From a virus, in the IMG/VR virus record IMGVR_UViG_3300049440_000308, positions 62,309-126,308 of that record: DNA of 64,000 nt; one strand, written 5' to 3'. A model generated the notes under the pieces. That model was not told where the DNA came from. It was given only the letters and a program-made list of their open reading frames with translations, and searched no databases. The stretch's first letter is position 1; every line of letters begins with the position of its first letter. This document shows, piece after piece, positions 4,905-62,429 of the stretch. The position numbers and the translations under genes were made by a program.

Positions 4905-5492
4905 ATGACCGCGCGAACCCAGCGCGGCGGCAACGGCCGATTCACCCGCACCGCCGCTACCCGCAAACGCGACTGCCGCGCCGCGGAACTTCACGGGCAG
5001 GGCTGGTCATACCAGCGGATCGCCGACGAGCTCGGCTTCGCCTCCAAGGGCCACGCGCACGACGCCGTGATGCGCGCCTACGCCGACATGCCCACCGAGG
5101 AGGCGCGGCAGGCCCGCCAGACCGACCTTGACCGCATCGACCGGCTTATCGAGAAGAACTGGGAGGCCCTGGAACGGCAGCACATCGCCGTCTCCAACGG
5201 CCGGGTCGTCCGCCGCTTCGTCGGCATCGAACGCGATGAGGACGGCATCGAGCGCCTCGACCCGGACGGGAAGGTAATCCCCGTCTTCGAGGATGTCCTC
5301 GACGACGGGCCCGTCGCGGTCCACTCCACCGTCATCTTGCGGCTGATCGCGCAGCGAGAGAAGATCTTCGGTTACGGTGCCCCCGCCCAGTCCCGCATCG
5401 AGGTGATCACCGCCGACATGGTGGAGTCGCACATCGCCGAGCTTGAATCCCAGCTGGCCCGCAATGACCCTGCAGGTACAGGCCCCGCCTGA
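4905..5492 (+). CDS. terS: terminase small subunit
   Basis: N-terminal HTH (GWSYQRIADELGFASKGHAHDAV), helical body, position directly before terL. Confidence 0.75.
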   Translation: MTARTQRGGNGRFTRTAATRKRDCRAAELHGQGWSYQRIADELGFASKGHAHDAVMRAYADMPTEEARQARQTDLDRIDRLIEKNWEALERQHIAVSNGRVVRRFVGIERDEDGIERLDPDGKVIPVFEDVLDDGPVAVHSTVILRLIAQREKIFGYGAPAQSRIEVITADMVESHIAELESQLARNDPAGTGPA

Positions 5493-7153
5493 CCGGCTGC
5501 GCTACCTGCTGGAACTGCAGCGGCGCGCGGCGAGGATCAAACCGGGGGTCGCCCGCTACTACCATGACCCGCTGGCGTTCGCCGCCGACTGCATCGACTG
5601 GCGCGGTACTGACGGGCTGACCGGCTACCAGGAGGACATCATCGGGGGCCTGCCGCAGCGTAAGCGCACTGCGGTCCGCGGCCCCCATGGATTAAGGACT
5701 AGGCAAATCGGCTATCTCCGCGGTGACGGTCCTGTGGTTCGCGCTGACCAGGGACGCCGCCGGGGTCGACTGGAAGGTCGCGACGACCGCCGGCGGCTGG
5801 CACCAACTGACACAGTACTTGTGGCCGGAGATCCACAAGTGGTCCGGGCGACTGCGCTGGGACAAGGTCCGCGACGGCCGGCCGTTCACCCGGTCCGAGC
5901 TGCAGAACCTGAACCTGCGGCTCGCCCACGGGCATGCCTTCGCGGGGGCATCCGCTAACGCCGCCCTGATCGAGGGCGCGCACGCCGACTCGCTGCTGTT
6001 CGTGTTCGACGAGTCCAAGGCGATCCCCGCGGGCACCTTCGACGCCTGCGAGGGCGCGTTCTCCGGCGCCGGGGAGGGCGGTACCGAGGCGTTCGCCCTG
6101 GCCCTGTCGACCCCGGGGGCACCGCAGGGCCGCTTCTACGACATCCAGTCACGCCGCCCCGGTTACGAGGACTGGCACCCTGTCCACGTTACCCTCGCCG
6201 CCGCCATGGCCGCCGGGCGGATCACCGCCGAGTGGGCACGGCAGCGCCTGCGGCAGTGGGGCGAGCAGTCAGCGATCTACCAGAACCGTGTCCTCGGGGA
6301 GTTCCACGCCGAGGACGAGGATGCGGTCATCCCCCTCGCCTGGGCGGAGGCCGCAGTGGAACGCTGGCACCAGTGGGAGGCCGCGGGCAAGCCCGACACG
6401 GGCAGGCCTCGTACCGTCGGCGTGGACGTCGCCCGGTTCGGCGGAGACAAGACGGTCCTCGCGGTCCGCAACGGCCCGGTGATCACCGAACTGCGCCGGT
6501 ACACCAAGGAAGACACCATGGCCACCACCGGCCGCGTGAAGGGCATCCTGGCGGCGGACGACTCCCGCATCGCGGTGGTCGACGTGATCGGCATCGGCGC
6601 CGGGGTGGTCGACCGGCTCCGCGAGCAGCACGCCCGCGTCGTGGCGTTCAACGCCTCCCGTGGCTCCAAGGCCCGTGACAGCACGAGGGAGATGGGCTTC
6701 TACAACCGCAGGAGCGAAGCCTGGTGGACGCTCCGGGAAGCCCTCGACCCGTCCGCCGGCCCTGACATCTGCCTGCCCGATGACGAGATGCTCCTCGGTG
6801 ACCTGTCCACCCCTAAGTGGGAGGTCCGTTCCGGAGGCAAGATCCTGGTGGAAAGCACCGATGACATCCGGGAGCGCATCGGCCGTTCCCCCGACGACGG
6901 AACCGCGGTCGTGCAGGCGTTCGTCCCGCATCTCGGCGACGCCTCGCCGGCCACCGTCCGCCAGTGGGCCGGCGCTGCCGGCCTGGCTGACATGGGCGTG
7001 AACGAGGAAACGAAAGCGCACAGGCGGATGCGGGAGATTCAGGGGCGCGCGGCGGAGGGCCTTGAGGACGCGCCTTGGGATCTAGACGGTTTCGGCCCGC
7101 AGGACGAGGCGGAGGCGAGGCCTCGCGGCAACAACGTCAGGACATGGCGGTAG
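5464..7153 (+). CDS. terL: terminase large subunit, interrupted by a 7-nt insert in Walker A (joins 5464-5691 with 5699-7153)
   Basis: AVRGPHG / LGKS Walker A split across frames; Walker B LLFVFDE; RNase H-like nuclease motifs VGVDVARFGGDKT, DVIGIG and SPDDG. Confidence 0.9.
5689..5698 (+). other. candidate translational bypass element GGA-TTAA-GGA
   Basis: Matching GGA codons flank the rare TTA; skipping 7 nt restores GPHGLGKS. Confidence 0.7.
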
Positions 7154-7174
7154 GCGTCGGGAGGGAGGCGGCGC

Positions 7175-7249
7175 CCGGCACTGAAGTTTGTCTGCGCGCT
7201 CGCGTCTCAGTGCCGGATACCCGTCTATGAGAATGCGCAGCTAGACGGG
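7175..7249. other. two tandem hairpins downstream of terL
   Basis: CCGGCACTGA/TCAGTGCCGG (7175-7216) and CCCGTCTA/TAGACGGG (7220-7249). Confidence 0.5.
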
Positions 7250-7325
7250 CACGCGGAGCGCCGCCCCCTCGGCCGCCTAGCCTAGCGCAAGGGTAAACGT
7301 CAGGGCGTGGCGGTAGGGTGCCCCC

Positions 7326-7508
7326 GTGAGCCCGATCCTGACCTGGGAAGGCGCCGGAGAGGTGCCGAACTTCTGCCCGCAGGGCTGCGGCGGCATCAGC
7401 GAGGACGTCTACGGCGGCCCCTGCCAGGCCTGCTGGGCTGAGGTTGACCGGGAGGAACAGGCCCGGGACGAGGAGGACGAGCGGTGGCGTCAGGGGCGCG
7501 GCGGCTTA
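7326..7508 (+). CDS. small Cys-containing protein; true end uncertain (runs into a TTA at 7506 and the convergent gene)
   Basis: GC3-rich CPQGC..CQAC segment; weak SD. Confidence 0.35.
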
Positions 7509-7715
7509 GCCCACCACAACTGCCCGACCGCGACCTCACCGCCGGGGTTCTCCCGCAGGAACGCAAGCGCCTGGTCGACCCCGGCCCGGCAGGACGCGCA
7601 GTCGTGCATCAGCCCCAGCGTCCGCACCTGCCCGGGATCCCCGGTGACCGTCCAGTCGGCATGGTGCAGCCGCTCCCCGATGTTCGCCGCGAGCCGCTCC
7701 GACACCTTGCGCAGG
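7490..7715 (-). CDS. hypothetical protein (start uncertain)
   Basis: Minus frame reads as natural protein (HHADWTVTGDPGQVRTLGLMHDCASC) with high GC3. Confidence 0.5.
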
Positions 7716-7815
7716 TCACGCCCGGGACGGCACGCCAGTGCAAGACGTGCACGAAGGCGAAGGCGAAGGAGGCGACGGCCAGGCGCAAGGCTGCGTGACC
7801 TGACCGCTGCCACGG

Positions 7816-7848
7816 AAGGGCCGGGGGCGTTGCGCGTCCCCGGCCCTT
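7816..7848. terminator. GC-rich hairpin
   Basis: AAGGGCCGGGG/CCCCGGCCCTT 11-bp stem. Confidence 0.45.
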
Positions 7849-7891
7849 AGCTATGCCCGCTCCCGTCCCGCCTGTATCGTGGTGCGCAGCG

Positions 7892-7976: not shown

Positions 7977-9587
7977 ATGGTCGATACCCGCTCCGCGAAG
8001 ATCATCGAGTTCCCCGACCTCCCGCCGAAGGGCTCTCCCGGTAACGGCGGTAGAAGGTCCTTGCTAGGGCAAGAACTTGGAACCTCGTTCGATTACGGAC
8101 AGCGCTTGTTCGCCTACTATTTAGGGCGCCGGAGATGTGTTCGATTATGGCTTACCCACCTCGGCGAATTCAGCGCGCGGGACTACCGCCAGATGCTGAG
8201 CCGGAACGGGACTGCTAGCGCTCTCGAAATGGTGCTCACCCTGCCTATCCGTGAGGCCGATTTCAGCATTGAGCCGGGCAAGGGCGACACCGGCGAGTGC
8301 GACTTCGCCCGGTCTGTTCTGCTGACACCTGACTCGGAAGGTGGCATGGTCACGCCGTGGACCACGGTAATGGGCCAGATCACTGCCGGCCAGTTGTACA
8401 AAAAGTCCTTCTTCGAGAAGGTTTTCGGCATCCGTGACCTGGACGGCAAGATCATTTACCGGAAGGTCGCCTACCGTCCCCCGTCGACCTGCCAGGCCCG
8501 CTTCAACGACCGGTCGGGCGAGCCGAACGGGTTCCGGCAGCAGGTGTGGCTGTTCGGCGGCAACCTGGCCATTTCGAACAAGCAGAAGGTCCCCGGGTAC
8601 GTCGATGTCCCGCGTGTCCGCAGTTACGTTTACGTGCACGGCAAGCACCGCGAGCCGTTGAGTGGCGTCAGTGAGGTTGAGGTAACTTACTGGTGCCACC
8701 AGACATCCATGAAGCTGATGTTCCTCTGGATGCAATTTCTTGAGGGGATGGCACTACAGAGGCTGGTGGTGTACGGCAACGACCAGCCGGAGGCCACCCA
8801 GCGAGCCGACGACATCTCCCAGCTCCGCGGCTCCGGCGTCGTCGGCCTGGTGCACCCGATCGACGGCCAGAAGGCATTCGAGGCGATCCCGTCAGCGGGA
8901 GACGCGGGTCATTTCTTCACCGAGGCGCTGGCCTTCCTGCAGAGTTGGTCGATCAGCAGCGTCCTCGCCGGCTTCCTCGGCCTCGCCAGCGCGTCGACCG
9001 GCGGCCGCGGCGCCTACTCGCTGAGCCAGGACCAGAGCGATTTCTACTTGAAATCCCGTCAGGGCGTGGCGAAGGAGATCGCGGAGAGCATCTCCTGTGA
9101 CCTGATCCGCCCGCTGATCCTGCTGAACTTCGGCTCGGGCGCGGCGTTCCCCCAGGCGCGATTCGGCCCGCTGCAGGATGAGCAGGTCCAGATGCTGCTC
9201 ACCATGTTCAGCACCATGTCGGCGGCCCCCGTGCTGCACATTCCACTCGCGGTTTTTGACCTGATCACCGAGCGCATGGCGAGCATCCTGCAGCTTGACG
9301 TGGATCAGGTGCACGAGGCCCTGGTGAGCACCGCGAGCCAGCGGGCGGAGCAGCTGGCGGGTAATCCCCCGCCGGGCATGCCCCCGGAGGCTGCGGCGGG
9401 CCTGGGGCAGCTGCAGGGGCTGGCGACGGCGGGTACGGCGATCGCGCAGCAGGCGGCAGCGAAGCAGGCGGGGAGCACGCCCCCGTCAACCGCACCGCCG
9501 CCGAGGATGCGGATGCCCGCCGCGGGGGCGCCTAAGCCGCCGCAGAACAATCCCATGGCCGGCGGGCTTCCGGGGGCGGGGCAGTGA
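7977..9587 (+). CDS. portal protein (Mu gp29/DUF935-like), with candidate double bypass at 8118-8165
   Basis: Position after terL, size, and portal-like motifs (FFEKVF, YRKVAYRP, VHGKHREPLSG, SVLAGFLGLA..GAYSLSQDQSDF); Pro-rich tail. Confidence 0.85.
   Translation: MVDTRSAKIIEFPDLPPKGSPGNGGRRSLLGQELGTSFDYGQRLFAYYLGRRRCVRLWLTHLGEFSARDYRQMLSRNGTASALEMVLTLPIREADFSIEPGKGDTGECDFARSVLLTPDSEGGMVTPWTTVMGQITAGQLYKKSFFEKVFGIRDLDGKIIYRKVAYRPPSTCQARFNDRSGEPNGFRQQVWLFGGNLAISNKQKVPGYVDVPRVRSYVYVHGKHREPLSGVSEVEVTYWCHQTSMKLMFLWMQFLEGMALQRLVVYGNDQPEATQRADDISQLRGSGVVGLVHPIDGQKAFEAIPSAGDAGHFFTEALAFLQSWSISSVLAGFLGLASASTGGRGAYSLSQDQSDFYLKSRQGVAKEIAESISCDLIRPLILLNFGSGAAFPQARFGPLQDEQVQMLLTMFSTMSAAPVLHIPLAVFDLITERMASILQLDVDQVHEALVSTASQRAEQLAGNPPPGMPPEAAAGLGQLQGLATAGTAIAQQAAAKQAGSTPPSTAPPPRMRMPAAGAPKPPQNNPMAGGLPGAGQ
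8118..8165 (+). other. two candidate bypass elements: TAT-TTAG and GGC-TTACCCACCTC-GGC
   Basis: The +1 frame between them reads GAGDVFDYG; hops of 4 and 14 nt sum to 18 and restore the frame. Confidence 0.65.
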
Positions 9588-11497: not shown

Positions 11498-12103
11498 GTG
11501 CCGGCGCCTAGCGCCCGTGAGGCCCTGCGGCCCGGTGACGTCCTGGTCGTCCGGACGGCCGGGCTGCCCGCGAGGCTGATCCGGGTCGGGGAGGAACTGT
11601 CCGGCAAGGTGGGGCTCGACAACCACGTCGCCTTGTTCAGCCACTGGACCGGCAGTGTCCCGTGGGGCCTGGAGGGAAAACCGGGCGGGGTCGGCTGGGC
11701 GGACCTGCGCCCCTACCTGGCCAGCCATTTCACGGTGAACAACTGCCTGCAGCCGGGCCGTGACGACGCGGGCCGGGCGGAGGTCTGCGCGCAGGCGGGG
11801 CGGATGCTGGGGACCGCCTACGACTGGGAGGCGATCGCGGATGACACGCTGCGGGCTTTTCACATGCCGGACCTGTTCGCGTCCACCTGGCACGGGGCGG
11901 TCCCCGGTCATGTTCTCTGCAGCTCCTACGTCTCGTTCTTGTACGCCCGGCAGGGGTGGGTGCGCCCGCGGGTGCCGGACCGGGACACGGAACCCGGTGA
12001 CTGGACGGCCTTCATCACAGATCACCAGTGGAGTGCGACGATAAGCGCGTTACGGCAGATTGCTGAAGAGAGCGGGGTGCCCCGTGGTAAACATCACCGA
12101 TGA
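11498..12103 (+). CDS. permuted papain-like NlpC/P60 (YiiX/YebB-type) hydrolase
   Basis: PGDVLVV, NHVAL, EG.PGGV, GTAYDW and C-terminal CSS motif order; TTA at 12050. Confidence 0.7.
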   Translation: MPAPSAREALRPGDVLVVRTAGLPARLIRVGEELSGKVGLDNHVALFSHWTGSVPWGLEGKPGGVGWADLRPYLASHFTVNNCLQPGRDDAGRAEVCAQAGRMLGTAYDWEAIADDTLRAFHMPDLFASTWHGAVPGHVLCSSYVSFLYARQGWVRPRVPDRDTEPGDWTAFITDHQWSATISALRQIAEESGVPRGKHHR

Positions 12104-33119: not shown

Positions 33120-33736
33120 CGTTCGGCCGCTACGTGCTGACCGCCAATGTCACCGTCCCCGCGGGCACCGCCGGGTTCTCCGCGGGGGGCCCGGGGGTCA
33201 CCACGACCGCGGTCACCTCCGCGGCACCTGCAGGGGGAACGACGGTCACCTCGCAGGCCGCGGGCCCCGGCTCGGTCCTCCTGTCGTGGACGGTCGCCCT
33301 GCAGACCGCCGCCGCCGCGGGCGACGTGAACAACTTCGGCCTCTACAACGGGGCGGTCCTGCTCGCCACGTCGGTGAACACGGGCACGGTCGCCAGTTTC
33401 CCGCAGGCCGCCGCCGTCACCTACCTGGAGGCCGCCGCCACGGTGGTGAGCGTCAAGAACATCGGCAACGGCACCGCCGGGAGCGTCTACTCGGCCACCC
33501 TCACCCTCACCCCGGCAACGACCGGGGGCGCCAACGGGACCGCCGGGTGGACCGGGGCGGGATCGCCCGCGGCATGGTCGGCGGGCCCGTTCCCCGTGAC
33601 GTTCCTCGCCGGGACGCCGCTGTACCTGGACACCGCCGGGGCCCTGTACGCGGCTCTCGGGGCCGCGAGCCTCCGGGCGTGGATAGACGGAACCGACGGC
33701 CAGCCCCACGGCAAGTGGGGGGCGCTGAGCAACTTA
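33116..33736 (+). CDS. beta-rich structural protein; probable functional end at ...GALSN-TTA (formal ORF runs to 34051)
   Basis: ATGA overlap; C-terminus matches the xSN*/xTN* ends of the next two genes. Confidence 0.6.
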
Positions 33737-60773: not shown

Positions 60774-60974
60774 CTACTCCGGCTGCACCGGGATGCCCGC
60801 GAGCAGCGCCCGGACTTCGGTTTCCCGGTAGCGGCGGTGGTTGCCGAGGGTGCGGATCGACGTGAGCTTCCCCGCCTTCGCCCACCGGGTGACGGTCTTC
60901 GGGTCGACGCGGAACATCGTGGCGACCTCCGCCGGGGTCAGCAGCGGCTCGGCCTCCGGGTGCCTTGTGCTCAT
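60774..60974 (-). CDS. bldC: BldC-family MerR-like HTH regulator
   Basis: EPLLTPAEVATMFRVDPKTVTRWAKAGKLTSIRTLG.HRRYRE.EVRALLAGIP matches Streptomyces BldC as I recall it. Confidence 0.9.
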   Translation of the reverse strand: MSTRHPEAEPLLTPAEVATMFRVDPKTVTRWAKAGKLTSIRTLGNHRRYRETEVRALLAGIPVQPE

Positions 60975-62244: not shown

Positions 62245-62429
62245 CAGGCGTTCCCCTCTCGCAGCGCCTTTACCTCTTCCTGCCGGTACTTCCGGTGCCT
62301 GCCCGAACCGGGGACCGGGGTGATCTTCCCTGCTTTAGCCCAGCGGGTGACCGTCTTGACGTCCACGCCGAACTCCGCGGCGACCTGCTCCTCAGTCAGC
62401 AGCGGCGCCTCCGGCGGTGATGCGGTCAT
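62244..62429 (-). CDS. BldC/excisionase-like HTH protein (diverged paralog)
   Basis: PLLTEEQVAAEFGVDVKTVTRWAKAGKI...RHRKYRQEEV; GGAGG SD. Confidence 0.8.
   Translation of the reverse strand: MTASPPEAPLLTEEQVAAEFGVDVKTVTRWAKAGKITPVPGSGRHRKYRQEEVKALREGNA

Follow-up and report, generated by a model that had tools for sequence, protein, structure and literature searches.

The 64,000-nt window analysed here (the whole stretch, positions 62,309 to 126,308 of IMG/VR virus record IMGVR_UViG_3300049440_000308) carries a large terminase subunit gene, terL, whose Walker A motif is split by the 7-nt block TTAAGGA. We propose, with a probability of roughly 0.75, that this terL is intact and that its full-length product is made by programmed translational bypass, a short hop of the ribosome over TTAAGGA. 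The anatomy of the site is plain from the letters. Frame 1 runs CGC GGC CCC CAT GGA (5689-5691) TTA (5692-5694) AGG ACT AGG, and this zero-frame open reading frame (ORF) closes at the stop at 5956-5958. Frame 2 has TAA at 5693-5695 and then GGA (5696) CTA GGC AAA TCG GCT ATC TCC GCG GTG ACG GTC CTG TGG; its translation from this GGA is GLGKSAISAVTVLW (GLGKSAISAVTVLWFAL), and it stays open to 7153. With 5692-5698 excised, a 76-codon 5' part and a 484-codon 3' part join to a 560-aa product containing AVRGPHGLGKSAIS (AVRGPHGLGKS), and GGATTAAGGA has a single occurrence in the window. A first-pass annotation made from the letters had described this two-frame layout, which reads as it said, the stop at 5958 included; it had also held that skipping the 7 nt yields an exact Walker A, and 119 uninterrupted homologues do have the spliced form, GPHGLGKS. 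The features of the site are the following.

5464 to 5691, + strand: terL 5' coding segment, 76 codons from ATG 5464 (MTLQVQAPP...AVRGPHG), the last being the take-off codon; aligns with the N-termini of uninterrupted homologues.
5689 to 5691, + strand: putative take-off codon GGA (Gly), first Gly of G-LGKS; GGA in 7/7 interrupted versus 14/119 plain alleles.
5692 to 5694, + strand: UUA, a rare codon that is presumably decoded slowly and would occupy the A site as the tRNA takes off; it follows the take-off codon immediately in 7/7 interrupted terL alleles and in 16/17 inserts of related portal genes.
5692 to 5698, + strand: putative coding gap TTAAGGA, 7 nt, with landing GGA at 5696-5698; its excision restores the family consensus RGPHGLGKS.
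5693 to 5695, + strand: +1-frame TAA overlapping TTA; one interrupted relative, L132, has TAG at the same position.
5699 to 7153, + strand: terL 3' coding segment, 484 codons and stop, resuming at CTA, the Leu of G-LGKS; encodes the remainder of the ATPase together with the nuclease domain.
5956 to 5958, + strand: zero-frame read-through stop; the product if UUA is read as Leu would be the N-terminal 76 aa with an 88-aa out-of-frame tail.

Two other arrangements were considered and rejected. No start codon was found in frame 2 between the TAA and GLGKS, and a split gene with separate N- and C-terminal polypeptides and a restart at GTG 5723 would lose GLGKS, which is conserved although it lies upstream of any possible restart codon. 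Transcriptional slippage was likewise set aside for the window, TTAAGG having just two A's.

The identity of the gene was established from PHROGs, tblastn and a weak PDB match. By tblastn, the terminases annotated in Streptomyces phage TurkishDelight and Actinoplanes phage phiAsp2 share 53-56% identity with the 3' part, and an intact homologue, P0004 (85% identical), matches phrog_2, terminase large subunit, with an E value of 1e-35. A weak match to the nuclease domain of a solved large terminase protein, PDB 8dkr, covers the C-terminal half (query residues 282-386 and 440-484). Pfam and NCBIfam returned no family for either terL half or for P0004. The next large gene after terL is Portal_Mu (Mu-type portal). 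From these matches the gene is assigned as a large terminase subunit with a predicted Walker A ATPase N-domain and nuclease C-domain, beside a portal gene.

The first-pass annotation had proposed that the 7 nt be confirmed in raw reads, and they are present at the level of assembled contigs. Logan contigs from two runs of two studies, one of which may be the source sample, span 5689-5698 without difference or gap. These are assemblies at about 3x coverage and not raw reads, and no RNA run holds the site. The low coverage is the one point in favour of a sequencing or assembly artefact, to which we give hardly any credence. The contigs of the two studies agree, and TTA-led inserts recur at this codon in four assemblies of diverged relatives that were made independently, so that an assembly error does not account for the 7 nt.

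To place the site among its relatives we compiled a terL census from GTDB genomes, JGI metagenomes and IMG/VR that comprises 138 unique loci. The plain class accounts for 119 of these, with zero length variation in the P-loop; uninterrupted homologues have 556-573 aa and read ...AVRGPHGLGK[ST]... at this point. Seven loci carry a TTA-led insert at the P-loop codon and a few are decayed. Four of the seven (the window, L122, L119 and L124) read GGA-TTAA-GGA, with a gap of 7 nt; the L122, L119 and L124 terminases, independently assembled, are about 80-82% identical in protein and share the same TTAAGGA insert. The other three are L001, with GGA-TTA-GGA (6 nt, in frame), L118, with GGA-TTAAAAAA-GGA (11 nt), and L132, with GGA-TTAG-CGA (7 nt), where TAG replaces the TAA of the +1 frame. 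The frame changes that the 6-, 7- and 11-nt alleles demand are 0, +1 and +2, and because they differ in this way no single frameshift rule fits; only a GGA-to-GGA hop would give the same canonical P-loop from every length with a GGA landing. A plain GPHGLGKS or inserts of varying length had been anticipated, and both kinds were found, the plain ones reading GPHGLGK[ST]. It had also been anticipated that inserts would keep take-off, TTA and landing; GGA and TTA are kept in all seven alleles, and the landing GGA in six. A targeted pattern scan of IMG/VR (CGCGGCCCCCAYGGATTA) retrieved nothing beyond five contigs already known.

In one uninterrupted allele, L146, the Leu of Walker A is itself encoded by TTA (GGA TTA GGC AAA). 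Here UUA would have to be decoded for the enzyme to be made, which reverses the polarity seen in the hop alleles.

Chief among the rival explanations is a +1 frameshift, which we regard as improbable. UUA would be read as Leu and A5695 then skipped (or UUAA read as a quadruplet), so that the product would be GPHGLGLGKS, with a P-loop two residues longer. The 6-nt L001 allele encodes this same peptide by standard decoding, and UUA-AGG resembles hungry-codon +1 sites such as the CUU-AGG-C of Ty1. However, the AGG is not conserved (L001, L118, L132), tRNA re-pairing from UUA to UAA is poor, and the TAA at 5693 blocks any +1 shift that precedes UUA decoding. The 11-nt allele would need a +2/-1 shift instead, giving GPHGLKKGLGKS, and P-loop length is constant in 119/119 plain homologues. 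The conservation of the landing GGA in 6/7 alleles is needless for a frameshift, and one frameshift cannot solve the stop-containing in-frame inserts of the portal genes described below.

Sequence evolution on either side of the gap separates the interrupted genes from pseudogenes. Both halves are open in 7/7 interrupted alleles, and each gene has exactly one break. Among the seven, the downstream part has ratios of nonsynonymous to synonymous substitution (dN/dS) of 0.19-0.30 at synonymous divergences (dS) of 0.46-0.89, and the upstream part is also constrained; even L132, with its unmatched landing codon, has a dN/dS of about 0.25. The decayed copies L035, L027 and L036, found in bacterial genomes or metagenome-assembled genomes of an uncultured actinomycete, Nonomuraea roseoviolacea and a Streptomyces sp., have several random frameshifts without TTA. 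A disabling lesion, with terL a pseudogene of a defective phage, has in its favour that the phage is uncultured. It is very improbable: a single break has been kept in seven alleles at dS 0.5-0.9 and dN/dS of about 0.25 with no second lesion, and real pseudogenes of the same terL family look different. Because they combine purifying selection with a single break, unlike the decayed copies, the interrupted terL genes appear to be functional, and the ribosome would then have to cross the gap.

Immediately upstream of the gap lies a predicted RNA structure.

5640 to 5689, + strand: 5' stem-loop; GGGGGCC at 5644-5650 pairs with GGCCCCC at 5680-5686, with an inner GCCGCAG/CUGCGGU stem.

Its outer CAU/AUG pairs extend to the first base of the take-off codon. 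The hairpin has a minimum free energy of -30.3 kcal/mol (z -2.9; 3/200 shuffles as stable) and is predicted in 7/7 interrupted alleles at -28.3 to -36.0 kcal/mol, versus a mean of -17.6 and a best value of -27.7 in 121 plain alleles. Across cells, 91% were paired with the hairpin as drawn versus 38-48% with slid partners. Plain alleles encoding the same peptide use other codons and have no complementarity. L132 keeps the hairpin, its 5' arm being in a different codon phase. The predicted structure is specific to interrupted alleles and created by codon choice. RNAalifold found no compensatory pairs, the hairpin being nearly invariant, and no conserved 3' structure was found at the terL site. 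A Shine-Dalgarno-like AGGAGGA is present at 5630-5636, 53 nt upstream, where the same letters encode a conserved YQEE; AAGGA occurs inside the gap itself and is absent in L132.

In a terL tree the seven interrupted alleles fall into one young group, in which three alleles with inteins and three plain ones are interspersed. They do not form a clade of single origin, strict monophyly being rejected by the approximately unbiased (AU) test. Because monophyly is rejected and plain and intein-bearing alleles are intermixed, the history of the insert includes losses or lateral exchange of the 5' cassette. Inteins lie between K and S of GLGK/S in about 6 loci by the census count. The seven loci examined (L120, L121, L123, L126, L145, L047, L171), with an N-terminal Ala and a C-terminal THN/S in the intein, come from at least four terL clades, some alleles being nested among interrupted ones. 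The landing codon and the site of intein insertion are 9 nt apart, and the terL census contains no allele with both insert and intein. This proximity and the absent co-occurrence raised the idea that the insert may interfere with intein homing. A further large insertion near residue ~413 of the L192 terL is probably also an intein.

These observations bear on a second alternative, in which the hop is real and sensing of host tRNA-Leu(UAA) is not its chief role: the insert would instead alter the DNA target of a homing intein or spread as a small mobile cassette, and bypass would merely let the gene survive it, as proposed for T4 gene 60 and MobA. Besides the nearby P-loop inteins and the lack of an allele with both elements, the intermixing of insert and plain alleles on the tree and the near identity of the 5' cassette among insert alleles speak for it. 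Against it, no endonuclease target is known, the absent co-occurrence is not significant (about 0.5 expected), and the near-universal TTA start, which points to a decoding role, is left unexplained. We consider this alternative rather unlikely as the principal explanation; it and a decoding role are not mutually exclusive.

The portal gene (7977-9587) contains two further candidate hop sites, written here with a slash after the take-off codon.

8118 to 8124, + strand: portal hop 1; TAT take-off, TTAG gap (4 nt, from 8121), landing TAG, 2/3 match.
8149 to 8165, + strand: portal hop 2; GGC take-off, TTA at 8152, 14-nt gap, landing GGC at 8163-8165 (GGC/TTACCCACCTC-GGC).

Splicing both gaps gives FAYYGAGDVFDYGEFSARDY, the consensus of plain portals. 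The two gaps total 18 nt, so that the zero frame is open, yet it encodes a scrambled 14-aa segment. In relatives the codon of portal hop 1 is followed by other blocks, TAT/TTAC (landing TAC) and TAT/TGATTAA. Eleven related portals (N-termini of L127, L131, L128, L119, L001, L121, L044, L129, L142, L049 and L153) have 17 distinct small inserts at six codons within a span of about 30 codons, for example ACT/TTACC, TTC/TTAACGGGTC, GAT/TTAAAGAA and TTC/TTAGAACGCTAA-TTC. Apart from the stop-led TAT/TGATTAA, all have TTA directly after the take-off codon, and in all 17 the last triplet agrees with the take-off codon at 2-3 positions, against about 16% by chance. Several, such as TTC/TTAGAACGCTAA-TTC, are in frame yet contain a stop; such inserts are beyond any frameshift and therefore support hopping as the common mechanism.

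We tentatively suggest, at a little short of even odds, that TTA-led hop inserts are a general device of this soil actinophage lineage: terL has one, the portal gene of the same phage two, and related portals 17 or more others. If so, assembly of the packaging machine would depend on poor UUA decoding by the host, the lineage would surpass every known virus in its density of programmed bypass sites, and the inserts would form a natural mutational series for the rules of short-range bypass (gaps of 4 to 15 nt, perfect and 2/3 landing matches). They may also move as cassettes, or shield these sites from the homing inteins that invade them.

Other observations concern the same region and codon. 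Inserts that resemble one another (TTAA..GTC) are found in two separate TTC^GAC TAC GG contexts, a recurrence that suggests copying between sites. Between terL and the portal gene, a small Cys-rich ORF (7326-7850) has an apparent frame change at TTA 7506 (GGC/TTAGC/CCA) and is possibly a further candidate hop, with landing AGC and a 2/3 match. Elsewhere, the in-frame TTA at 33734 stands just before the GGGAG-spaced GTG start of the next gene, its own frame having no nearby stop, and the TTAs at 12050 and 51836 lie 17 and 7 codons ahead of their genes' stops. In the portal region of L001, a called gene of 549 aa (5863-7512) has a faint LAGLIDADG_3 match, which probably marks an intein or homing endonuclease within the portal gene.

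The decoding context was considered for the whole contig. The window is part of a single 131,159-bp contig with many small genes, most likely the genome of an uncultured phage, and its GC content is 70.6%. By a rough gene call of the contig, TTA makes up 11 of 29,879 codons (0.37 per 1000). The codon had been described as almost absent; it is rare, as claimed, though not entirely lacking, and several further TTAs that are in frame themselves sit at candidate hop sites. Homologous prophages occur in Streptomyces genomes. A 66-aa protein encoded at 60774-60974 on the - strand matches the BldC family regulator NF033787 with 102.6 bits (cut-off 77); BldC is a developmental regulator family of actinomycetes, here borne by a phage. 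These indirect signs (GC content, rarity of TTA, the BldC-family regulator and the prophages) point to a Streptomyces-like host.

At the terL site, peptidyl-tRNA-Gly would occupy GGA 5689 in the P site with UUA in the A site, a codon that is among the rarest in this phage and expected to be slow in the presumed high-GC actinomycete host. During the pause the tRNA would leave GGA, the mRNA would slide by 7 nt, and re-pairing would take place at GGA 5696. Decoding would resume at CUA 5699 to give the 560-aa TerL, whose P-loop would be the canonical GPHGLGKS. By analogy with T4 gene 60, the 50-nt hairpin would probably favour forward movement as it re-forms behind the ribosome. If UUA were decoded as Leu, a 164-aa dead-end product ending at the stop at 5958 would result, and because ribosomes that decode UUA would make this product, the terminase yield should fall as tRNA-Leu(UAA) activity rises. 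What was observed is the anatomy, its conservation, the allelic series and the purifying selection; the hop and its efficiency, the role of the hairpin, the restriction of active terminase to conditions in which UUA is not decoded, and any tie to tRNA levels or bldA are inferred.

Several points weigh against programmed bypass. No tRNA genes were found in the window or in the 131-kb contig. The codon match is not universal: L132 has CGA at the landing position, which reflects either a relaxed landing requirement or an allele starting to decay. The product of L001 by standard decoding, GPHGLGLGKS, coincides with what a +1 frameshift would yield from the 7-nt allele, and it might mean that a P-loop two residues longer is tolerated. 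For the extended inner stem of the hairpin, two covarying pairs were found and 29/500 shuffles reached the score; covariation support is weak because the hairpin arms are almost invariant. The arms may, alternatively, be so uniform because the cassette spread laterally not long ago, which is conceivable because the interrupted alleles do not form one clade. No significant 5' hairpin was found at the portal hop sites or at site 1 of the phiHau3 terminase (compared below), so the structure is not a universal feature of such sites. The phage is uncultured and was seen solely in metagenome assemblies, its viability being assumed, and the hop at the terL site is predicted from sequence. Because the terminases of the cultured relatives TurkishDelight and phiAsp2 are plain, no viable isolate with the insert is known.

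Upstream of terL, and overlapping its start, is an ORF at 4905-5492 that is likely the small terminase subunit; it matches HTH_18 weakly, and its PHROG, phrog_645, is labelled 'Rnase E'.

A bypass in this gene would add an independent case, in a new terminase family, to the UUA-bypass class, and its natural 6-, 7- and 11-nt alleles separate a hop from a frameshift by comparison alone. It would also make rules for the rare codon, the landing match, the gap length and the 5' structure testable. Our results suggest that hopping gated by a rare codon may recur in high-GC actinomycete phages and tie virion assembly to host physiology. Gene callers will mark such essential genes as broken.

The closest known system was named in the first-pass annotation as a TTA-associated bypass proposed for the terminase of Streptomyces phage phiHau3, and this precedent is real and has the same anatomy. 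Smith et al. (2013), whose proposal of UUA-led terminase bypass is reviewed and extended by Antonov et al. (2023; PMC10732093), described two 10-nt blocks in the phiHau3 terminase mRNA and one 7-nt block each in the StrepC.1 and S. catenulae prophages. Each block starts with UUA and was proposed to be bypassed when tRNA-Leu(UAA) is lacking, and the phiHau3 junction peptide was found by mass spectrometry in E. coli. UUA bypass has so far comprised these three related terminase genes, for which the authors call the evidence supportive and not proof (PMC10732093). Reading the phiHau3 sites directly, we found GGC/TTACTCC-GGT/AAG and TCT/TTAACGG-TCC/ACG, with a hairpin adjoining the second.

The window site resembles the phiHau3 type in having a short noncoding block (7 or 10 nt) in a highly conserved motif of an essential terminase gene, with UUA directly after the take-off codon, a last block triplet cognate to the take-off tRNA, a 5' stem-loop and a zero frame that ends soon after. 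The 7-nt gap is the size reported for StrepC.1 and S. catenulae, and in both cases the hosts are high-GC actinomycetes in which TTA is very rare, the host here being predicted from sequence. Unlike the phiHau3 type, the window site falls inside GxxxxGKS, between G and L, has a natural series of 6-, 7- and 11-nt alleles, and belongs to a lineage with many further TTA-led inserts in the portal gene, its phage being uncultured. The TerL families are unrelated (phrog_2 here, phrog_9 in phiHau3; BLASTP E 1.9), and because the phiHau3 TerL has no detectable similarity to that of the window, the element is an independent origin of the proposed UUA bypass device in a new terminase family.

With T4 gene 60 the site shares GGA take-off and landing codons, a non-decoded codon adjoining the take-off in an essential phage gene, an upstream stem-loop that could refold behind the ribosome, and a possible link to a homing element at the same site. 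It differs in the gap (7 nt versus 50), in having a sense codon, UUA, in the A site where gene 60 has UAG, and in the lack of a take-off hairpin in the gap. The site does not fit the +1 type of prfB or Ty1, as GGA to GAU and UUA to UAA re-pair poorly and the interrupted alleles need changes of 0, +1 and +2. Hops at hungry codons and stops in E. coli (Weiss et al. 1987; Gallant and Lindsley 1998; reviewed in PMC5009743) reportedly occur with low efficiency in synthetic constructs. As in those hops, a peptidyl-tRNA would move a few nucleotides to a matching codon while the A-site codon is decoded slowly; unlike them, the window site is natural, conserved and located in an essential gene.

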